Origin: a virus
Taxonomy: Duplodnaviria; Caudoviricetes
Direction: 5' to 3' (one strand)
Virus record (IMG/VR): IMGVR_UViG_3300033406_000296
Coordinates: 1 to 54,455 of that record
DNA length: 54,455 nucleotides
Shown here: positions 258-54,455 of the stretch, piece by piece
Numbering within the stretch: the stretch's first letter is position 1
How the letters are laid out: every line of letters starts with the position of its first letter
The notes under the pieces: model-generated
Told to the model about the DNA's origin: nothing
The model's input: the letters and a program-made list of their open reading frames with translations, nothing else
Databases searched by the model: none
Translations under genes and position numbers: made by a program

Positions 258-1457
258 TTAGTTCGCCGTCCCTTGAGTATTTTTGGTAGTCCTCATATTG
301 TTTAATACGTTGTGCATTATAGAAGCGGTTTCTTCCTGAATGGTTTGTATTTCGTGAATATAAGTATCAAGTGTAAAACTTTTCTTTGTGTGGCCTAATG
401 CTTTTGAAACAGCAGCAATGTCCAGACCGTTTTTTAGTAAATAACTACCATGCATGTGCCGGAGGATATGGGGGGTAATATTAAACAAGCCATTTTCTTT
501 GCAGAATCGCTTTAAAAAAGTATTTAATTGTGTAGGGTGACCTATGGTACCGTCGGCTTTAGTAAAAACCCATTTGTCATCGCTTACGGGATCGGTAAAA
601 ATAATGACTTTATTTCTTTTAGCGCGACGGGCATATTGGGCTTTTACTTCTGCTCGGTATAAGTTCAATAGTCTAACTGTTTCAAAAGGCAAGGATAGTT
701 TTCTTTCACTTGATTCAGTTTTTGTTTGACCTATTTCTATGGGTTCACCACAAATATATGTTGCTGTTCGAATAATTGATACTGAGTTATTATTAAAATC
801 AAAATCTCCCCATTGGAGTCCGGCAATTTCTTCTCGCCGTAGACCACACGTAAATCCTAACATGCACATTAGTTGGTTTTTAATAGGAGCCGTACTTAAA
901 CATTCAAAAAACTTAGCGAATTCTTCTTGTGTAGGAACTTTTTTTCTTTTTCTTTCAGTACGTGGAGCGCTTATCTTTTCCATAGGATTACTTATGATTA
1001 ATTCCCATCTATAAGCTGTTGAAAATAAAATATTTAACAGTTCACGATGTTTTCCAATACTTCGGGCTGATAATGGTTTGTTATCTTTACTTGCTGTTGG
1101 ACTGCTTAATTGTGAGAAGAATTCGACAATATGAGATGGTTTGACCTTGTGTAAATATAAAAGACCTAGACTAGATTCTATTCGAACAAATACCTGTTCA
1201 TATGTTCCCATGGTTGTTTTAGCATAATGAGCAATTGCGTATTTTTCTTTCCAGTAATCATAAAATTGTTTTAATGTCATACGGTCGGTGCCTGAGACTA
1301 TAGCTTTACCTTGATAAACGCTAGCGGCAAATAATGTCCATTGTTGTTCAGCCTCAGGTAATTTATTAGCTTCAATAGTTTTTGTGTAGGCCTGTTGTTC
1401 GTAAACAACAGTTAAAAGGCAAGTGCCATTTTTGCGCATTTTTATTTTGCTTGGCAT
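258..1457 (-). CDS. int: Tyrosine integrase
   Basis: GLRREE (R), HILRH (HxxR), LGH, TLDTY (Y) catalytic motifs; adjacent to attL. Confidence 0.95.
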   Translation of the reverse strand: MPSKIKMRKNGTCLLTVVYEQQAYTKTIEANKLPEAEQQWTLFAASVYQGKAIVSGTDRMTLKQFYDYWKEKYAIAHYAKTTMGTYEQVFVRIESSLGLLYLHKVKPSHIVEFFSQLSSPTASKDNKPLSARSIGKHRELLNILFSTAYRWELIISNPMEKISAPRTERKRKKVPTQEEFAKFFECLSTAPIKNQLMCMLGFTCGLRREEIAGLQWGDFDFNNNSVSIIRTATYICGEPIEIGQTKTESSERKLSLPFETVRLLNLYRAEVKAQYARRAKRNKVIIFTDPVSDDKWVFTKADGTIGHPTQLNTFLKRFCKENGLFNITPHILRHMHGSYLLKNGLDIAAVSKALGHTKKSFTLDTYIHEIQTIQEETASIMHNVLNNMRTTKNTQGTAN

Positions 1458-45075: not shown

Positions 45076-46731
45076 GTGGAAAACCAACTATATTACGGTG
45101 ATAACTTAAAAATACTCCGCAAACACATCTGGGATGAGAGTGTTAATCTTATTTATCTTGATCCTCCATTTAATAGTCAGGCTAGCTATAATATCTTTTT
45201 TAAAGAAAAGGGGGGAGCTGCACCTGAAGCACAAGTCACTGCTTTTGATGATTTTTGGAAGTGGGAATCGCCACATACCGATATAGTATTTAATAAACTA
45301 ATAACCCAGCCTCCAAAAAGATTATCAGACTTAATGGAAGCCTACTTAAAATTTTTAGGGAAAAGTAATTTAATGGCATATATTACTATGATGGCCATTC
45401 GGCTAAAAGAGCTACATCGGGTCTTAAAACCAGAGGGAAATTTGTATCTTCATTGTGATCCGACGGCAAGTCATTATATAAAACTTTTATTAGATGCTAT
45501 TTTTGGTATTGAAAACTTTAGAAACGAAATTATATGGAAGAGGTCTCAGCCCAAGGCGCATATTAGCAGGCGTTTTTCGCGAGCTCATGACGTTTTATTC
45601 TGGTATAGTAAATCAGAGTCATCTATTTTTATTCCTCAATATAAGCCACATGATCCTGAATATATTCAGAAATTTTACCGATTTACAGAACCTGATACGG
45701 GAAGACGATATCGGCTGGGAGATTTGACTAATCCAAATAAAAATCGTCCTAACCTAACTTATGAATTTCCACCTGGCAGTGGTGTAGTTCGGGTTTGGCG
45801 ATGGACAAAAGATAAAATGCAGAAGGCATGGAAAGACGGGATAATAGTTGTTCCGAAAAGTGGGAAGGTCGTCCAATGCAAGCGATATTTAGATGAGATG
45901 AAAGGGAGCCCTATTACTGATCTGTGGGATGATATAGAACATTTGCATGGTAATCATAAGGAGACTGTGGGATTTCCAACGCAAAAACCACTATCGTTAT
46001 TGAATCGTATAATTCAAGCTACTACTAAACCTGAAGATGTAGTACTAGATCCTTTCTGTGGATGCGGTACAACAATTGCTGCAGCTGAAAAACTAAATAG
46101 AAGATGGATAGGTATTGATATTACGCATTTGGCGATTGCTATAATAAAAAACAGGTTGGAATTGGGGATACATAATCCTTATGAGGTAATTGGTCTTCCA
46201 AATGATTTAAGTGGGGCAAAAGAATTAGCTAGTAATAAATACGAGTTTGAGTATTGGGCGGTAGACCTAATCGGGGGTTATCCAAAATCAGATAAAAAGA
46301 AGAAAGGTGCTGACGGGGGAATTGACGGTTATATAAAATTTGTAGATGATAATCCCCTAAAACCTAAAACTATGTTAGTACAGGTGAAAAGTGGTCATGT
46401 AGGTGTTGATGATATACGCAGTTTTGCCAGAGTAATTGATCGGGAATGTGCTGCAATGGGAGTGTTTGTTACATTGGAAAAACCTACAGGCCCCATGGTC
46501 AAAGAGGCTGCAGAATTTGGTATATATAAATCGAAAATACTTGGTAGTGAAGATCAAATAGCCAAACTACAAATTTTAACAATAGAAGATATTTTAAAGG
46601 GCGTTAAAGTTCGGTTACCTAGCGTTCAGCCGATCAAGCCGAATGACCTTAATAATAATTCACGAGTTGGAGAAAAGCTTGCACATATTCAGTATAATCA
46701 ACATGTTGAATTGTTTGGGAAAGAAGTCTAA
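45076..46731 (+). CDS. Beta-class N4/N6 DNA methyltransferase fused to an Mrr-like endonuclease domain
   Basis: IYLDPPF, FPTQKP, VLDPFCGCGTT; C-terminal FE.W...DGGIDG...VQVKSG. Confidence 0.9.
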   Translation: MENQLYYGDNLKILRKHIWDESVNLIYLDPPFNSQASYNIFFKEKGGAAPEAQVTAFDDFWKWESPHTDIVFNKLITQPPKRLSDLMEAYLKFLGKSNLMAYITMMAIRLKELHRVLKPEGNLYLHCDPTASHYIKLLLDAIFGIENFRNEIIWKRSQPKAHISRRFSRAHDVLFWYSKSESSIFIPQYKPHDPEYIQKFYRFTEPDTGRRYRLGDLTNPNKNRPNLTYEFPPGSGVVRVWRWTKDKMQKAWKDGIIVVPKSGKVVQCKRYLDEMKGSPITDLWDDIEHLHGNHKETVGFPTQKPLSLLNRIIQATTKPEDVVLDPFCGCGTTIAAAEKLNRRWIGIDITHLAIAIIKNRLELGIHNPYEVIGLPNDLSGAKELASNKYEFEYWAVDLIGGYPKSDKKKKGADGGIDGYIKFVDDNPLKPKTMLVQVKSGHVGVDDIRSFARVIDRECAAMGVFVTLEKPTGPMVKEAAEFGIYKSKILGSEDQIAKLQILTIEDILKGVKVRLPSVQPIKPNDLNNNSRVGEKLAHIQYNQHVELFGKEV

Positions 46732-46923: not shown

Positions 46924-46956
46924 TAATGTCGTTGATCGGTTGGCGGCATAAATAAT

Positions 46957-46986
46957 GGCCCTGGCGTGTGCTGGGGCTTTTTTTTT
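46957..46986 (+). terminator. Intrinsic terminator
   Basis: GGCCCTGGC-GTGT-GCTGGGGCT followed by a T-tract. Confidence 0.7.
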
Positions 46987-47050
46987 AGCGGATAATTATG
47001 AATATAAAAATGTAAAAGTGATAATAATAAAACGCCGGAGGTGGGGCATC

Positions 47051-47509
47051 GTGACAATTAATTTAATACCTTTTGTATATACGGCAATTTTTGCAGTTCT
47101 ACTTTTTATACTTGTTCCTAGAAACGATATAAGAAGGTTATTGATATATGGAATTATTTATGGCGGGGTTTTTGATGTTGTTTTACTAAGCATCACAAAC
47201 TTTATCGGCGAATTTCGGTATATAAATTATGAACCATTTGGTTTAATGGGGATTCATTTCTTAGCACCTATATCATGGTCGATTTTTTTCGTTATGTATT
47301 TTTATTTTTTGCCAGAAAAGCCTAAATATGTATACGTATATGTGATTGCGGCAATTTTCTATAGCATGTTATTTTGCCAAATGATTACCAAAATGGGTGT
47401 CTTACAATTGGCGCACGGAATATGGGATTCAATAATACCCTTTATATTATGGTTTCCTCTTGCTACGTGGGGCTACTATAGGTTGACAAAAGGAGCGAAG
47501 CTAAGGTAA
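47051..47509 (+). CDS. Integral membrane protein (CBO0543-like, tentative)
   Basis: RBS GGAGGTG before GTG; about 5 TM segments. Confidence 0.7.
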   Translation: MTINLIPFVYTAIFAVLLFILVPRNDIRRLLIYGIIYGGVFDVVLLSITNFIGEFRYINYEPFGLMGIHFLAPISWSIFFVMYFYFLPEKPKYVYVYVIAAIFYSMLFCQMITKMGVLQLAHGIWDSIIPFILWFPLATWGYYRLTKGAKLR

Positions 47510-47728: not shown

Positions 47729-48352
47729 TTATCGGTAATCAGTATTAATGTATAAAAAATCTGAATCAGTAATTTCTTTATAACCCAATTTATACATATA
47801 ACTTCGAAGTATAGTGTCAATATCATGTCCGTTGACGGACTTAATTATTGTTTGATCATTTTCTTTGGGAACATAGAAGGCCAGAGGAATCATGATAATA
47901 CACCCTATTTTTAAACCGAGTGAGTGAAATAAAATATTATCTATGTTAGTAATAACTGATTTCGCCACATTACTATACTCGTCTTTAATATGAATAGTCT
48001 CTAATGAAAGTATGTTTTTATGCTTACCGACAAACTTACTGCTGAACCTGTTGCTCTCGGTTAATGTATTATAAGCTGACGACATATCTTCACTTATTGC
48101 ATTGAAAACATTGTAAACGGAATCGTTGGCATGTTCGATCTTAACTATATCAATAAATGTACTTTCAATAAAACCAATATTCTCAGCAACGCCTTCTTCC
48201 CCGTTTTTTAATTCAATCCCGTAAATTTCTGTTAGGACATAATAACTGTAGTGTTTTGGTTTTAGGTCAGTAGGCCAAGAGTCTTTCAATGGAACAATAA
48301 AAGGTTTTAAAGGGGATTTCGATACTTCAAACTGAAGTTTATCTATTCTCAT
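47729..48352 (-). CDS. Hypothetical protein (possible degenerate GNAT fold)
   Basis: ILSLETIHIKDEY...YMYKLGYKEI. Confidence 0.65.
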   Translation of the reverse strand: MRIDKLQFEVSKSPLKPFIVPLKDSWPTDLKPKHYSYYVLTEIYGIELKNGEEGVAENIGFIESTFIDIVKIEHANDSVYNVFNAISEDMSSAYNTLTESNRFSSKFVGKHKNILSLETIHIKDEYSNVAKSVITNIDNILFHSLGLKIGCIIMIPLAFYVPKENDQTIIKSVNGHDIDTILRSYMYKLGYKEITDSDFLYINTDYR

Positions 48353-48474
48353 GTTCGTATCACTCGCAATCTATTTTATACCTGGTATTGTGGCTGGGTA
48401 TTAACAGCATCTTCTCTACGAAAAATGAGAATATATTTAATTTATGACATATATAGCCAAAATCCTTCTAATGC

Positions 48475-48499
48475 AGGAATATAATGTAAATAGAAGAAT
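48475..48499 (+). promoter_or_regulatory. Sigma-H-type promoter
   Basis: GC-AGGA-N17-GAAT, a full consensus match. Confidence 0.72.
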
Positions 48500-48531
48500 A
48501 ACTTACTATTATATTCTTATGGCGGTGGGTT

Positions 48532-48732
48532 ATGCTTAAAAACCGATTAAAACATTTTCGACACAAGCACGAGATGAACCAGACTGAGTTTGCAGAGTTT
48601 TTGGGATTTTCGGTTGGCACATACAACCAATGGGAAAACCACAAGCGTGAGCCTGCTCTTGATAATGCATGGCAGATTGCAAAAAAATTAAACTGTACAG
48701 TTAATGACCTGTTCGAGGAAATTAATCCTTGA
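48532..48732 (+). CDS. XRE HTH regulator
   Basis: NRLKHFR..MNQTEFAEFLG...YNQWE; terminator hairpin 48709-48745 overlaps its end. Confidence 0.9.
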   Translation: MLKNRLKHFRHKHEMNQTEFAEFLGFSVGTYNQWENHKREPALDNAWQIAKKLNCTVNDLFEEINP

Positions 48733-48850
48733 ACAGGCTTTTTATTTATCATATAAAAACTTAACGCGGACGTGCAATATTATCACGTTAATGCATATCT
48801 ATATAGCAAACAATATACTCACCATCAAGGTATATAGGAGGCTATATAGT

Positions 48851-49651
48851 ATGATCGCAGTGGATTGTGGGAGGTTCGCCGTAAAGGCAGTAAGAGACCA
48901 CCGAATAATCATTCCAAGTGTAGTCGGAGAATGGCGAGAGCGACGAATAACCGAGGGAGGCAATTACGAGGTAAGTATAAATGGACAGAAATATTTCATT
49001 GGGGAACTTGCTCAGCAGGAGAGCCGTTTCGCCCGAGACATGACAACCAGGAGTAAAATCCACGAGGAAACGAAGATCCTCACGCTGACAGCGATAGCAT
49101 TATTAACCGACACGGAACGGGTTCAGTTAGTTACCGGCTTGCCGGTTGAGCAACACACCCCAAACACAAAGGCCGAATTAAGGAAACTGTTTACCGGAAT
49201 TTATGATGTTGAAGTGAACGGAGTAAGGAAGCATATTCGCTTAGCTGAATCCGACATCGTAATAACCATTGAAGGGGCCGGGGCGTACATCGCAGAATCG
49301 CCTCCCGGTAAGTGCCGGATCATCGATGCTGGCAGCCGAACGATCAATACACTCACGATCGATGAAAATAAAAAATACCGCGACCTGCAGTCCGGTACGT
49401 TGGATTACGGATGTATGGAATTAATGGCTGACAATCAGACGGAGCAGTTTTCACGACGAATTATAACCGATCTAAGTAAGCTATGGGTGAAATATTCTGG
49501 AGAGCCTGTACTGTTGACCGGTGGAGGTGCAGGGGTGCTTGAGCCGTATCTGAGTAAGCATTTTAAGGTTAGGCAGGTAAGCAGTCCGATTTATGCTAAT
49601 GCTCTAGGCTATCATGCTCTGGGGGTGCGAATGTGGCAAAAACAAGGTTAG
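48851..49651 (+). CDS. parM: ParM/StbA-family actin-like ATPase
   Basis: IAVDCGRFAVK (phosphate 1), VTGLP, EG, IIDAGSRT (phosphate 2), LTGGGA, YANALG. Confidence 0.9.
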   Translation: MIAVDCGRFAVKAVRDHRIIIPSVVGEWRERRITEGGNYEVSINGQKYFIGELAQQESRFARDMTTRSKIHEETKILTLTAIALLTDTERVQLVTGLPVEQHTPNTKAELRKLFTGIYDVEVNGVRKHIRLAESDIVITIEGAGAYIAESPPGKCRIIDAGSRTINTLTIDENKKYRDLQSGTLDYGCMELMADNQTEQFSRRIITDLSKLWVKYSGEPVLLTGGGAGVLEPYLSKHFKVRQVSSPIYANALGYHALGVRMWQKQG

Positions 49652-49848
49652 TGTATTTTACCGATTCTGACGCAGAGTTACTGAAATACAGCAAAGAACT
49701 GCCCAATTTCAGTCGTTGGGTAAAGCAAAAACTAGCCACCGAGCGTGATACGGGAAGCATTGAAGCGTTGATTAATAAATTGATAGATGCACGGCTCGGG
49801 GCGGTTGCGGTGACCAGTAACGATGCAGATTTTAGTCAGTTTATTTGA
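49633..49848 (+). CDS. ParR-like small DNA-binding adaptor
   Basis: Overlaps parM; beta-alpha-alpha N-terminus (TRLVYF..D.ELL...NFSRWVK) and short acidic-hydrophobic tail. Confidence 0.65.
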   Translation: MAKTRLVYFTDSDAELLKYSKELPNFSRWVKQKLATERDTGSIEALINKLIDARLGAVAVTSNDADFSQFI

Positions 49849-49866
49849 GAGTATAATTTTCCCATT

Positions 49867-49881
49867 GCTGTCACTGACAGC
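49867..49881. promoter_or_regulatory. Perfect palindrome, putative operator
   Basis: GCTGTCA-C-TGACAGC, 50 nt upstream of the membrane/ATPase operon. Confidence 0.5.
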
Positions 49882-49930
49882 TTATGATAGGGACAACCGA
49901 AAAGATGCATGTCAAAGGAGGATTTTAAAA

Positions 49931-50026
49931 ATGTTGTGGGCGATTTGTTGGGCGGGGTTAAAAATCGGCTTAACCCTAGGGGCAACATTTTGGATGGCTG
50001 CGGTCAGGGCAAGGAGGATGGAATAA
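49931..50026 (+). CDS. 31-aa hydrophobic peptide
   Basis: RBS AAGGAGG; MLWAICWAGLKIGLTLGATFWMAAVRARRME; TAATG coupling to the next gene. Confidence 0.6.
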   Translation: MLWAICWAGLKIGLTLGATFWMAAVRARRME

Positions 50027-50352
50027 TGATTATTACTGCAGGATGGTGGCGTAAACCTAAAATTCCAGCGGAAGTATCGGTTATACCATTAATGGCAGCA
50101 ACTATGCTCGGGGTTGATCATACGGTTTTAGCCTATACGCAGGGGACGATCGCGGCTAAGGCTGATCCAATCATTCAAATGATCCGCGAATTGGCTGATC
50201 CTGTGGCTTACTGCGTATTTCTGTGGGCTTGCCTCCGTTTTATAATGCATCAAGCACCAGAGGCTAAATCAATGATGAAGGATTGTGCCTGGGGATATTT
50301 TTTGGTGCAGATGGCACCAGTGTTCATGGGAATGATCCGCGATGTTAAGTGA
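50026..50352 (+). CDS. VirB2/TrbC pilin-like membrane protein (108 aa)
   Basis: RBS AAGGAGG; leader ending VLA, then a two-TM hairpin (ADPVAYCVFLWACLRFIM / AWGYFLVQMAPVF). Confidence 0.6.
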   Translation: MIITAGWWRKPKIPAEVSVIPLMAATMLGVDHTVLAYTQGTIAAKADPIIQMIRELADPVAYCVFLWACLRFIMHQAPEAKSMMKDCAWGYFLVQMAPVFMGMIRDVK

Positions 50353-50494
50353 TTACATATCTATAAGTGATATTGACAGCATGGCCTCAATCATTGTAAT
50401 GGTATTAGCGCTGGGGTATATGTTAGGTGCAAAGATCGGTAAAATTGCCTATTGGGTAATGGCTATTTATTTAATAGTAAAAGTTGCTTGGTAG
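50342..50494 (+). CDS. 50-aa two-TM protein (not in ORF track)
   Basis: MLSDYISISDIDSMASIIVMVLALGYMLGAKIGKIAYWVMAIYLIVKVAW; fills the gap between neighbours. Confidence 0.6.
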   Translation: MLSDYISISDIDSMASIIVMVLALGYMLGAKIGKIAYWVMAIYLIVKVAW

Positions 50495-50507
50495 GAGGTG
50501 CCTGCAG

Positions 50508-52766
50508 GTGTTTATTAAGATCGATAATCCCAAAATGGTTACCCTGCAGTTGGTCCCCGATCGTACAGTAAGAAACCATCATGTTGATGATCTGGCACGT
50601 AACTTACATGAGTTATATCGAAACGTGTTGAACGGTGTTAATTATAATGAGGGAAAAGTAGAATATCAGTCGCCGGACTATTCTGCTTTTGATATTATCT
50701 TATCGGCTGATGCGGTGAAATTTTATCTAACTATACCAGCAGAGTGGCAGGATTTTGCTCGAACAAAATTGACTGCTGTGTGGCCAAAAATCACTATTAT
50801 TCCGTCTGGCATAACGTATCCTCAACCTGATAAAATTTCAGTTGCGCGGCTTAAAACTAAAAATCATGACTTTTACTCTTTGCATACGGCCAAAAATGAT
50901 AACCGTCCGCTGGGGGCCATAATGGAAACCGCCAAAGATTTGCGAGCAGATGAGTATATAAGAATTCAAACTATTGCACGTCCGGCTGATCGGCAGCAAT
51001 GGGAGCATGAAGCCCTGCAGGCGTATTTGGCCCACCGACAAGGCAAACCGCTTGAACGCAGGGAAGTTTCGGTAGGGGCAGCAGTGCAAAGTGTAGCTAA
51101 ATATGCGGATGGATTTATGACTGAATTATATAGTTTTGCTTCAGATATGTTAAATATGGTGCCGGAAAAGAAACAGGAGAATTTAATTTTTAGCGATAAA
51201 TACGCTAAATTTGCACTGATGAACCGTCGCCAACTTACTGAAGCCACGGTCCATAAAATGAAAGAGGCGATATTCCACACCGAACTGCGAATATTAGCTG
51301 ATAGCAATAGTTTACAACGGAGCCGACTTTTAGTTAAAGGAATCGGCAATGCATATATTGAGTTGGCCAGTACCGATAATGAGTTTGTGATTAAACCGGT
51401 ACCGGAAAAATTCACTAAAGCGTTTATTCGTGATATAGAAACGCTTTGCTTGCCGATTTACTCAACCCATACAATAACATTATCAGCGTCGGAAATGGGT
51501 AAACTCCTGCAACTACCTGGGGCCGAATTACAACAAGATTATCCGATGATTGAACAAATAAGTACCCGAGAAACGCATTTACCCTCTGCCGTAACTGATC
51601 CTGCAGGTATATTGCTCGGAACGATCCGGTGCCAGGGGCAGGACCTTCCTGTGTATATCCCGATCAATAATTATGATGAACTATGTCTGCCGCGGATTGT
51701 TATTGGGGGAATGGGGTGCGGGAAGACACGGGGGTTTGGCGGGAATCTGATTGTCGAAGCTGTTCGGCATGGTTTTACGGCTATTGCTATTGATCCAGCC
51801 AAGGGGGAACTGTATGAAGAGGTCGTTGCAGGCTTGAAACCAGAAAGAATAGTTCATGTTAAATTCGGAGAAAGTTTGATATCCTTAGATTGGCGGGAAG
51901 TTAAATATGGGAATACAGCCAGGAGCCGACTGGCTAGTGAACTGATTTCATTCATTGAAACCGCATCAGACGAAACCGGCGTGCAAACTATGCGATATTT
52001 GAGGAGCGCGGCTAAGGCAGTCCCAACCGGACGGCTAACTGAAATAGTGGAGTTACTTACTAATCCGTCATATAGACGAAAATTAATGAAGTCAATGCCC
52101 GATCGGGAGATCGAGACATGGGATACTTACGACAAAATGAGTGATGCTAGACAAACGCAGATTGCTGGGCCGTTATTGAATCGCCTGGATGTAATTACAG
52201 GGGACGATTATTTGGCTAGTTGTCTGGAAGCTGAAAATGGAATTGATTTTGTAAATTTAATTGATTCAGGTCCGAAAGCTATTATTATTGATTTGCCAAA
52301 AGCGTCATTGGGTCCAGAAGGGGTAGACGTATTAGCAGCATTGATGGCTACAAAACTGGATTTGGCTATGGTGCTCCGTAAAACCCAATATCCGGTTTTT
52401 GTTATCCAGGATGAGCCGCATCAATATATGCGGTCAGCCCGGACATGGAAGGCAGCTACAGTGGAATCCCGTAAGTGGCGATTTGCATATTGTTGGATGT
52501 TCCATAGCGCCGAACAGATACCTAAACAATTATTGGAGATAATTAAGGCTGCTGGTCCGCATTATCATATTTATAATTCCAGCAAAAAAACATATAAGGA
52601 GCTAGCTGAAGAGCTAACTCCTTGGACAATTGAGGAAGCGTTAGAGACTAAAACGCATCACGCTTTAAATATTATTAGGGCTGAGGGGAAAAACGTTCCC
52701 GTGTTTATGGCTAAAATGGCAGCGCCGCTAACTATTAGAAAAAATAATAAAAATAGACTGGAATGA
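50508..52766 (+). CDS. VirD4/TraG/HerA-FtsK-superfamily P-loop ATPase
   Basis: Walker A GGMGCGKT, AIDPAKG, Walker B FVIQDEPHQ, ESRKW; GTG start after GGAGGTG. Confidence 0.85.
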   Translation: MFIKIDNPKMVTLQLVPDRTVRNHHVDDLARNLHELYRNVLNGVNYNEGKVEYQSPDYSAFDIILSADAVKFYLTIPAEWQDFARTKLTAVWPKITIIPSGITYPQPDKISVARLKTKNHDFYSLHTAKNDNRPLGAIMETAKDLRADEYIRIQTIARPADRQQWEHEALQAYLAHRQGKPLERREVSVGAAVQSVAKYADGFMTELYSFASDMLNMVPEKKQENLIFSDKYAKFALMNRRQLTEATVHKMKEAIFHTELRILADSNSLQRSRLLVKGIGNAYIELASTDNEFVIKPVPEKFTKAFIRDIETLCLPIYSTHTITLSASEMGKLLQLPGAELQQDYPMIEQISTRETHLPSAVTDPAGILLGTIRCQGQDLPVYIPINNYDELCLPRIVIGGMGCGKTRGFGGNLIVEAVRHGFTAIAIDPAKGELYEEVVAGLKPERIVHVKFGESLISLDWREVKYGNTARSRLASELISFIETASDETGVQTMRYLRSAAKAVPTGRLTEIVELLTNPSYRRKLMKSMPDREIETWDTYDKMSDARQTQIAGPLLNRLDVITGDDYLASCLEAENGIDFVNLIDSGPKAIIIDLPKASLGPEGVDVLAALMATKLDLAMVLRKTQYPVFVIQDEPHQYMRSARTWKAATVESRKWRFAYCWMFHSAEQIPKQLLEIIKAAGPHYHIYNSSKKTYKELAEELTPWTIEEALETKTHHALNIIRAEGKNVPVFMAKMAAPLTIRKNNKNRLE

Positions 52767-52768
52767 AA

Positions 52769-52793
52769 AGGAAAAACGTTTTTGCGATAGAAA
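52769..52793 (+). promoter_or_regulatory. Sigma-H-type promoter with no ORF directly downstream
   Basis: AA-AGGA-N17-GAAA. Confidence 0.45.
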
Positions 52794-53079
52794 TTATAAT
52801 AGTGCCACGCAATTTTGCAGTGACACAGAAAACGTCTATTTTCTTTTATTCTTTTTTGGACTAAAAATTATGCAAAACGCTTTTAGTTAAGATTTTTACT
52901 GAAATCTTAAAATTACACCGCTAAAAGTGAATTTATGTTCATTATTAGTATATCAAAAAAAATAAAAATGTAAATAGATTTTAAAAAAATAGTAAAAGGA
53001 GAGTTGTTTATTGTTTAATTGGTTTTTCGGGATAGTTAACTAGTCAAGAAAAAATAATCCAAAATAATCCAAAATAGGA

Positions 53080-53104: not shown

Positions 53105-53202
53105 TAATTATACTTTTATGCCCTAAATTTCAAAATATAAGCCTTATGTCGAAAAAGATAGAAAAATGTAGTATGATGTAATCATTCGGCTCCGTATTAA
53201 GG

Positions 53203-53412
53203 ATGGTGTTAGTGGAGCGTAATTACATCAAGGAATATAGAAAAATAAGAGGCATAAAATATCAAGCGGATTTAGCAAAGTTAGCAAACGTACCAAAGTC
53301 AACACTCGGCGAAATTGAACGGCATAAAATGAGAGGAAATCCCGAAACGCTGGATGCAATTGCAAAAGCGCTCGGGATTTCCAGGGAGGAGCTTTATATG
53401 CCGCCTGAATAA
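53203..53412 (+). CDS. XRE HTH regulator
   Basis: IKEYRKIRG..QADLAKLANVPKSTLGEIER. Confidence 0.85.
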   Translation: MVLVERNYIKEYRKIRGIKYQADLAKLANVPKSTLGEIERHKMRGNPETLDAIAKALGISREELYMPPE

Positions 53413-54329: not shown

Positions 54330-54380
54330 TTGACATCGTGGGGGTCACTGGTTCGAACCCAGTCGGTCGCACCAGAAAAA
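54330..54380 (+). repeat. attR core (duplicated tRNA-Val 3' half)
   Basis: Identical to 76-126; followed by the original host terminator hairpin (~54384-54415). Confidence 0.96.
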
Positions 54381-54455
54381 TTAAGGGTTCTGAGATTTCT
54401 CAGGCCTGTTTTTTGTGTTTTGATAACATTTTGACGTAAGCGTTGTCATGAGTTG

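Follow-up and report, generated by a model that had tools for sequence, protein, structure and literature searches.

The 54,455-base stretch of DNA analysed here, called the window throughout, spans the IMG/VR virus record IMGVR_UViG_3300033406_000296 (Caudoviricetes; IMG/VR completeness rating, 92%) and carries near its right end a cassette that joins an actin-like ParM protein to a pilin-like protein and a large ATPase. The window is a prophage, as an earlier reading of the bare sequence (the original prediction) had proposed, and it is integrated in a tRNA-Val gene. The tRNA gene lies at 43-120, at the left end; a 56-nt att repeat (76-131 and 54330-54385, 96% identity) reproduces the 3' half of the tRNA; and a tyrosine integrase gene (258-1457, minus strand) is found at the same end with a cI-type repressor gene. 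Next, on the plus strand, come genes for recombination and replication, the terminase and the structural proteins. The cassette lies in the final 6 kb before attR, past a methylase-Mrr fusion gene, in the accessory right arm of the element.

The genes of the cassette are all on the plus strand, in an order read from open reading frames (ORFs), ribosome-binding sites and hydrophobicity: an XRE-type regulator, ParM, a ribbon-helix-helix-like (RHH-like) protein, three small proteins of 31, 108 and 50 aa, and the ATPase. The head gene (48532-48732) encodes a 66-aa XRE/Cro-type helix-turn-helix regulator (PF01381, E 3.5e-12), and a terminator-like hairpin lies at its end (48708-48737, or to 48747 with the T run; a 12-bp stem with 6 GC pairs, then CTTTTTATTT). 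The 266-aa ParM/AlfA-type actin-like protein (48851-49651, ribosome-binding site AGGAGG) matches ALP_N (PF17989) with an E-value of 5.2e-28 and 98.5 bits against a cut-off of 26.3, and phrog_691, a 'partition protein' family, at E 4.7e-48; its nearest solved chains are pCBH ParM (6e-12) and AlfA (1.8e-7), so that the actin-like gene of the original prediction is confirmed. The end of this gene is overlapped by 19 nt by the gene of a 71-aa RHH-like protein of the SPP1 gp31 family, in the position of a ParR (49633-49848).

The three small products that follow had been presented as membrane proteins, a description that holds for the two larger ones and is weak for the first. This 31-aa hydrophobic ORF (49931-50026) has an AAGGAGG ribosome-binding site and one hydrophobic segment; its status is uncertain, no relative of it being found in the 30 loci compared below. 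The 108-aa product (50026-50352) is a TrbC/VirB2-type pilin-like membrane protein of the SPP1 gp31.1 family (phrog_5422, E 2.7e-12), and the 50-aa product (50342-50494) is a one-helix membrane peptide with a single, strongly hydrophobic segment. The last gene starts at 50508 (GTG) or 50484 (TTG), ends at 52766 and encodes a soluble ATPase of about 750 aa, of predicted VirB4 architecture and of the SPP1 gp32 family (phrog_5156). We are highly confident in the identity of these parts. The cassette is made of two linked units, a ParM/AlfA-type protein and a temperate form of the 31/31.1/31.2/32 gene set of phage SPP1.

The ATPase belongs to a large family. It matches phrog_5156, listed as of 'unknown function', at E 1.9e-175, and a search of 1.84 billion representative proteins returns 1,653 relatives at E ≤ 0.001, of which 143 are at E ≤ 1e-30. 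Its C-terminal part is a RecA-type P-loop domain in which K414 and D643/E644 are conserved across 92 aligned homologues; the names Walker A and Walker B, both intact as first described, are our reading of that alignment. The AlphaFold model of the protein (pLDDT 92.3, pTM 0.83) matches in Foldseek, at ranks 1-8 against the PDB, only chains of the R388 protein TrwK/VirB4 (E 7e-14 to 7e-13), followed by HerA, DotL, DndH-C and TrwB. When the N-terminal 360 residues are folded alone (pLDDT 91.8), the best match is again TrwK/VirB4 (E 3.3e-7), then comes a gap to E 8e-3; the best 10 of the 14 matches at E ≤ 0.001 are all TrwK chains. The sole hydrophobic segment of the ATPase is at residues 606-624 (numbered from the GVF... 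start), and the N-terminal part has none. Because the N-domain folded alone still matches TrwK/VirB4, the predicted structure is a two-domain VirB4 build with no membrane segment of its own. The VirD4/HerA-like architecture of the original prediction is replaced by VirB4, which both the N- and the C-domain match. An FtsK/SpoIIIE identity was also rejected, PF01580 being absent from the record (control positive in 10 of 14 genomes) and an N-terminal anchor missing.

By primary sequence, the same protein falls outside the curated VirB4 families as these are currently modelled. No relevant Pfam, NCBIfam or PADLOC assignment was obtained, the best NCBIfam match, to a VirD4-like model, reaching 13.8 bits against a cut-off of 250. 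A sequence search of the single protein against solved structures gave nothing meaningful, and a family profile searched against the PDB gave weak matches to DptH, TdpA and HerA. These matches, together with the location of the cassette in an accessory region between the lysis genes and attR, beside the methylase-Mrr fusion, would suit a prophage-borne anti-phage defence built on a HerA/DndH-type ATPase. We consider such a role extremely unlikely, because PADLOC gives no match for any cassette protein save a chance-level one (RT_XIII for ParM, E 0.0034), the ATPase N-domain matches VirB4, and many virulent phages have a family member among their early genes; in addition, no nuclease or Sir2-type effector adjoins it.

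The partners of the ATPase were compared across 30 distinct loci, each with a long ATPase ORF; these are the window, 13 phage records chosen from the hits, 2 IMG/VR loci and 14 genome loci. Genome contigs gave no locus when searched with the single ATPase protein and 18 loci when searched with a 7-sequence ATPase alignment. Left out were duplicates of the window and of L011 (L004 and L027), fragments (L019-L024), and L028 and L030-L034, for which the ORF scan covered the plus strand only or the match was limited to the ATPase core. Partner families were defined with iterated profiles built from the window proteins, and the E-values of members are leave-one-out values.

In 27 of the 30 loci, the ATPase is preceded by a member of the pilin-like family, with E-values of 2.1e-12 for the window protein and 5e-20 for SPP1 gp31.1. 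Among 17 members of the family, eight match PF04956 TrbC (best 3.2e-6) and six match PF18895 T4SS_pilin (best 2.7e-7). The alignment displays a hydrophobic leader ending in small residues, a conserved proline, and then a hairpin; the window protein has the leader and two hydrophobic helices with a short charged loop between them, as in TrbC/VirB2 pilins, and its look-alikes in the Atlas are TrbC/VirB2-like as well. The VirB2-like hairpin noticed at the outset is thus borne out by its family. The RHH-like family is present in 18 of the 30 loci (E 2.9e-5 for the window, 1.7e-19 for SPP1 gp31 and 1.6e-17 for Sam46 gp41), and residues F9, N25-F26-S27 and K31 are invariant in 10 sequences. A strand-helix-helix pattern with the NFS motif can be read from its alignment, and depositors have annotated homologues as CopG/Arc (Sam46) or ParG-like (PJN02). 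The window protein itself has no Pfam or PDB sequence match, the family profile finds nothing in the PDB, and family members have scattered single matches in Pfam. The slot of the 50-aa peptide is filled by a 44-aa one-helix ORF in 7 loci and by a two-helix protein of 105-119 aa in SPP1, Wes44 and Sam46; no sequence similarity was found between the peptide and the other proteins in its slot. On the partner counts and the pilin matches across loci, the conserved core is a putative pilin-like protein with a VirB4-like ATPase, usually accompanied by a predicted RHH-like DNA-binding protein.

Two copies of the ATPase gene depart from the usual form. The annotation of the Clostridium phage phiCp-D splits the gene (L038, 3487-5902) into ORFs of 179 and 631 aa, and a Paenibacillus genome copy (G002:C1:1956125-1958407) contains three stop codons and is therefore probably decayed.

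A core so close to TrbC/VirB2 and VirB4 could be a minimal pilus-biogenesis pair, making an extracellular or envelope-spanning filament or secreting protein rather than DNA. Extraction of pilin from the membrane is a role generally assigned to VirB4, and on a Clostridium sporogenes plasmid the pair, with a partner named 'TrbC/VirB2 family protein' by NCBI, stands alone with its ATPase. The pilin-like homologue of TP-84, TP84_47 (L002, 4624-5004), was reported by mass spectrometry in purified virions (available part of PMC5889276); its presence may reflect contaminating membrane or a true place in the virion. We hold this explanation to be very unlikely, as the set includes an RHH-like DNA-binding gene in 18 of the 30 loci, its ParM and Replic_Relax neighbours point to DNA, and a VirB6-like platform was not found in the window, by a search whose control was silent.

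The neighbours in question differ from phage to phage. SPO1 and the unrelated PJN02 share the order ParM, a small protein in the ParR position, small membrane proteins, ATPase and Replic_Relax, the last (PF13814) directly after the ATPase as SPO1 gp27.3 (L036, 6657-7481; E 2.9e-12) and PJN02 gp022 (L044, 11358-12185; E 5.1e-11). Phage G has a fuller set of the type IV secretion system (T4SS) kind, with two such genes directly before its ATPase copy (L043, 776-1735 and 2198-3847): gp153, a TrbL_4 (VirB6-like) membrane protein (E 1.8e-11), and gp155, a second ATPase with a TraG/AAA_10-type P-loop (E 1.6e-15). The 54-kb record of the window gave no match to relaxase PF03432, FtsK_SpoIIIE, AAA_10 or TrwB_AAD, which agrees with the absence of a relaxase stated in the original prediction; Replic_Relax and TrbL_4 had no match either, but the control searches were silent too. 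VirB6, VirB8, a VirB1-type hydrolase and a VirD4-type coupling protein were likewise not found in the record, with the same silent control for the VirB6 type (TrbL_4).

Transfer of the phage genome into a neighbouring cell, without a relaxase and in the manner of Ced or of Streptomyces TraB, was one of the two destinations first envisaged. It draws on the T4SS origin of the parts, on the VirB6-like and TraG-like genes added in phage G and the Replic_Relax nickase-type genes added in SPO1 and PJN02, and on the ability of Ced and ComB to move DNA without a relaxase through VirB2/VirB4-type sets. Such transfer appears highly improbable, because the searches run on the window gave no channel, wall hydrolase or coupling protein and none of the 54 plasmids that carry the ATPase is typed conjugative (46 are non-mobilizable and 8 mobilizable). 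Virulent carriers would moreover kill the donor, and phages already have virions.

ParM is a less constant companion. It was detected in 4 of the 30 loci, those of the window, D6E, an Ornithinibacillus prophage and SPO1 (gp27.9), and the phages in which it stands near the ATPase also include PJN02 and Basilisk. The protein in the ParR position belongs to the RHH-like family in PJN02 and is undetected by the profile in SPO1. In Basilisk, the pilin-like gene and the ATPase gene are about 1.3 kb upstream of ParM, an RHH-family gene comes after ParM, and between the two pairs stand minus-strand genes for an anti-repressor and for a small hypothetical protein. The RHH-like family therefore sits both in the ParR position and beside the pilin and ATPase genes, D6E having one copy in each place, and the single copy of the window could serve both ParM and the pilin/ATPase pair. 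The ParR-like assignment of the overlapping gene is accordingly retained in part: the 19-nt overlap and the predicted DNA-binding type would suit a ParR, but the family goes mostly with the ATPase (18 of 30 loci, against 4 of 30 with ParM).

A palindromic operator had also been proposed in this region. Three [C/G]TATATAG palindromes (the CTATATAG cluster) start at 48799, 48830 and 48842 and extend over 48799-48849, spanning the parM promoter and ribosome-binding site. Their clustering is visible, whereas the count of the 8-mer palindrome in the whole window is within chance (7 observed, 4.16 expected; at least 7 in 16 of 100 shuffles). The cluster is a candidate operator or centromere-like site.

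The irregular presence of ParM raises the possibility of two unrelated cassettes, ParM and RHH serving replication or segregation, and pilin and ATPase forming a general early-infection membrane device with no tie to sporulation, for superinfection exclusion, membrane anchoring of replication or help in genome entry. Help in genome entry is unlikely among these options, SPP1 being a headful-packaging phage with circularly permuted DNA. The ParM count, the separation seen in Basilisk and the early-gene location in virulent phages all speak for this division, as does the high conservation of genes 31, 31.1 and 31.2 among SPP1 relatives, for which the accessible part of PMC9607348 gives no known function. 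It leaves three observations unexplained, namely a distribution confined to endospore formers over two classes, a sigma-H-type motif in 8 of 8 prophage loci, and the repeated re-association with ParM in unrelated phages; we regard it as rather unlikely.

The first of these observations comes from a tblastn search with the ATPase, which matched 111 of 50,697 phage records, 99 of them over at least 80% of the query. Carriers include SPP1 (gene 32), SPO1 (gene 27.4), SP-10, TP-84 (gp48), D6E, GBK2, Sam46 and phage G. By organism name, 99 matches are Bacillus phages, 5 Geobacillus, 2 Lysinibacillus and 2 D6E (whose host is absent from the record), with one each for Brevibacillus, Alicyclobacillus and Clostridium. 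The large terminase subunit (TerL) of the same prophage, used as a control, matched 2,162 records, including 371 from Streptococcus, 242 from Staphylococcus and 142 from Enterococcus. Plasmid matches amount to 54 of 72,556 records (Clostridium 32, Bacillus 20, Alicyclobacillus 1, Aneurinibacillus 1), and the genome loci come from Bacillaceae, Paenibacillaceae and Brevibacillus. All carrier genera form endospores. In these collections, then, the ATPase family was met only on phages and plasmids from genera that form endospores, over two classes, a striking pattern that is uncorrected for phylogeny. Sampled genomes add phrog_5156 matches in 25 of 401 (E ≤ 1e-10), five of which are near full-length by reading (G001, in two adjacent pieces, G114, G275, G346 and G367).

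This distribution also bears on the element that the cassette was thought to serve. Excised prophage circles had been proposed as its cargo; the cassette occurs as well among the early genes of the virulent phages SPP1, SPO1, SP-10 and TP-84, and it is therefore not specific to prophages or to excised circles.

A second line of evidence lies at the head of the cassette. The sigma-H consensus is RnAGGAwWW-N11-12-RnnGAAT, and a sigma-H-type promoter motif, gcAGGAATA-N11-gaaGAAT, occupies 48473-48499 on the plus strand, 33 nt before the XRE start codon. Three such sites had been listed in the original prediction; the one at 48475 fits and is kept in all eight related prophages, whereas those at 52769 and 53080 lie, by reading, outside the consensus. 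A scan of the plus strand of the 30 loci, 337 kb in all, gives 5 strict matches, where shuffles give 1.2-1.5. Three of the five are at most 2.6 kb upstream of the ATPase, a region for which 0.36 would be expected; 1 of 300 block shuffles has as many as three there. These three are all directly before the small XRE-like gene at the head of the cassette. An XRE profile finds a strong head gene in 8 loci (the window, L006, L007, L008, L011, L012, L014 and L018) and a weak ninth in L026 (E 3e-4). AGGAWW...GAAT, with 21-22 nt from AGGA to GAAT, stands shortly before the ribosome-binding site in all eight strong loci, in six of them as found by script and in two as read from the printed sequence. 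We consider 48473-48499 a sigma-H-type promoter motif, conserved in related prophages, with a putative dependence on SigH.

Other possible regulatory elements were noted. A hairpin-like element (consensus approximately aaactgtgtagcgtaggcaaacagttttt), about 60-130 nt upstream of the XRE-like gene, precedes the sigma-H motif and is conserved in five prophage loci (L006, L008, L012, L014 and L018); it may end transcription of the preceding unit or have a regulatory role. The heptamer TGTCGAA of the Spo0A box is present at 11 sites in the window, where 5.0 +/- 2.1 are expected; 2 of 100 shuffles have at least 11. Examples are found at 48557 (minus strand), 51752 (plus), 53147 (plus) and 53579 (minus), and 4 of the 11 are in the last 6 kb. 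The box at 53147 overlaps a promoter-like site ahead of a second XRE gene, at 53203-53412.

Several genes and sequences around the cassette can be described on their own. Shortly upstream of it, a single 551-aa ORF (45076-46731, plus strand) combines an N6/N4 DNA methylase (PF01555, E 1.6e-46) with an endonuclease domain of the Mrr restriction type (PF04471, E 2.4e-11). The 184-aa product of 46955-47509 (plus strand), which has four hydrophobic segments, matched no family in Pfam, PHROGs, NCBIfam, PADLOC or the Atlas and is not counted as a member of the cassette; a 207-aa protein (47729-48352, minus strand) had no family in any library tried. Downstream of the ATPase gene, an exact tandem duplication of AAAATAATCC is found in the intergenic sequence at 53051-53070 (plus strand). 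For the region 48400-52800, no RNA or DNA sequencing run is listed.

The best overall explanation of these data, which we put forward tentatively, is a membrane-docked, DNA-handling device derived from a T4SS and tied to sporulation. Taken apart, a membrane-docked device that handles DNA is somewhat probable, and its link to spore carriage is doubtful. We infer that the RHH protein would mark a site on the phage DNA and that a ring of the VirB4-like ATPase, docked on the pilin-like proteins, would hold or pump the marked DNA at the cytoplasmic membrane, while ParM filaments, where present, would move it poleward. In a lysogen, the cassette would be turned on at stationary phase or at entry into sporulation of the host, and the pay-off would be a copy of the phage genome in the forespore. 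Such a purpose is in line with the accessible part of PMC12991052, which describes virospores of SPO1 and takes up its ParM gene 27.9 in the context of entrapment. The sporulation link of the original prediction hence stays plausible on host range and on the conserved motif, although only one of its three promoters fits. A stronger version would see a dedicated 'spore-boarding' machine, a stripped T4SS module of VirB2-like, VirB4-like and RHH proteins, often with ParM, driven by sigma-H in lysogens and made early on by virulent phages, which would position the genome, deliver it to the forespore and yield virospores; we judge this version unlikely.

A number of points weigh against a sporulation-tied DNA-handling device. 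Two of its parts are weak members of their families by sequence, the window pilin-like protein reaching E 0.034 and 14.6 bits against PF18895, under the cut-off of 26.6, and the RHH-like protein E 2.9e-5 with no Pfam match. To our knowledge, VirB4 is not established as a DNA pump in conjugation, and passing a circular genome through a closed septum is topologically hard. The sigma-H motif count in the window alone is within chance, with one strict match against 0.29 expected per spacing and at least one in 26 of 100 shuffles. The pattern is neither sensitive nor validated, because the probable sigma-H promoter of spo0A in the host-type genome G001, AGGATAT-N14-GAAAAT, which served as a positive control, was missed by its GAAT requirement. 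The hairpin after the XRE gene means that the motif may drive the regulator alone, and since the cassette is placed among the early genes of virulent phages, control by sigma-H cannot be general.

The distribution among spore formers carries its own limits. The matching phage and plasmid records come only from endospore-forming genera, but the cross-tabulation of the sampled genomes has no power because Spo0A_C is present in 335 of the 401, including all five near-full-length ATPase carriers, and the narrow host range could come from gene pools that phages share instead of from sporulation. Finally, ORF 31.2 and gene 32 of SPP1 are dispensable for lytic growth, according to the accessible part of Godinho et al. 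2018 (PMC6316719).

The entry of phage genomes into endospores, giving 'virospores', is an old question that has so far been tied mostly to host Spo0J/parS and to Spo0A boxes. The cassette is widespread, with 1,653 relatives of its ATPase at the looser threshold given above, and it is found in the model phages SPP1 and SPO1, conserved yet dispensable for the lytic growth of the former. A T4SS-derived pair, a spore-former distribution and a sigma-H motif in prophages make up a hypothesis that can be tested in Bacillus subtilis. Should it prove true, a 'spore-boarding' machine would be a viral counterpart of SpoIIIE made from conjugation parts. Should the spore link fail, a two- or three-gene T4SS remnant would still inform the evolution of VirB4 and the minimal mechanics of these systems.

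Known systems share single features with the cassette. The ATPase differs from HerA, DndH (DptH) and TdpA in its VirB4-like N-domain, in having no PADLOC match and in the lack of an effector partner. With SpoIIIE and FtsK it has in common a P-loop ATPase of the same superfamily; 'FtsK/SpoIIIE' genes of Bacillus phages have long been the subject of speculation on a role in bringing DNA into the forespore, as stated in the accessible part of PMC4113786. The ParM unit resembles ParMRC and AlfA-AlfB in its actin-like ATPase, its overlapping small gene of predicted DNA-binding type and its short promoter repeats. Comparable arrangements of an actin-like protein and an adaptor are the AlpC-AlpA pair of prophage CGP3 and AlfA-AlfB itself. 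The window departs from these partition systems in that its adaptor family goes mostly with the VirB4-like ATPase and not with ParM (18 versus 4 of the 30 loci), and plasmid partition is not an obvious need because the element is integrated and some carriers are virulent.

Compared with conjugative T4SS (VirB2/VirB4; TrwL/TrwK of R388), the window proteins lack Pfam or NCBIfam membership, the searches run gave no VirB6, VirB8, VirB1, VirD4 or relaxase, and the carriers of the family are phages and non-conjugative plasmids. The archaeal Ced/Ted DNA import systems and Helicobacter ComB also work with a VirB2-like pilin and a VirB4-like ATPase and without relaxase or coupling protein. They have in addition a VirB6-like channel and are cellular, not viral; the comparison with the window is one of fold class.

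The closest relative is the SPP1 gene set, with the same three families in the same order plus a second small membrane protein; gp32 aligns to the window ATPase by tblastn with 24% identity over 97% of the query (E 4e-42). The window set belongs to an integrated prophage and comes after ParM and after an XRE gene that has a sigma-H-type motif, whereas the SPP1 genes are early genes of a virulent phage; its second membrane protein has 50 aa instead of 105 aa. In its accessible part, PMC6316719 finds a resemblance of the gp32 C-terminus to TrwB, VirB4 and FtsK, and membrane segments in gp31.1 and gp31.2, and proposes that these may form a translocon with gp32 whose role is to be established. The T4SS derivation of the parts agrees with the original prediction, and the idea of a membrane translocon for this family was accordingly already in print for SPP1. 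Our search of the literature on phage VirB4, gp32, VirB2, SpoIIIE and ParM found no functional study of the ATPase family, and PMC13212656 makes no mention of gp32, gp31, VirB4 or a translocon. The cassette of the window is a member of the family already flagged in SPP1. To what was found in print, the present analysis adds the complete VirB4 architecture, the identification of the partner as pilin-like, a shared RHH adaptor, the distribution restricted to spore formers, the conserved sigma-H-type motif and the recurrence beside ParM. Sequence comparison and structural models together suggest a stripped-down remnant of type IV secretion that would work in phages outside conjugation.

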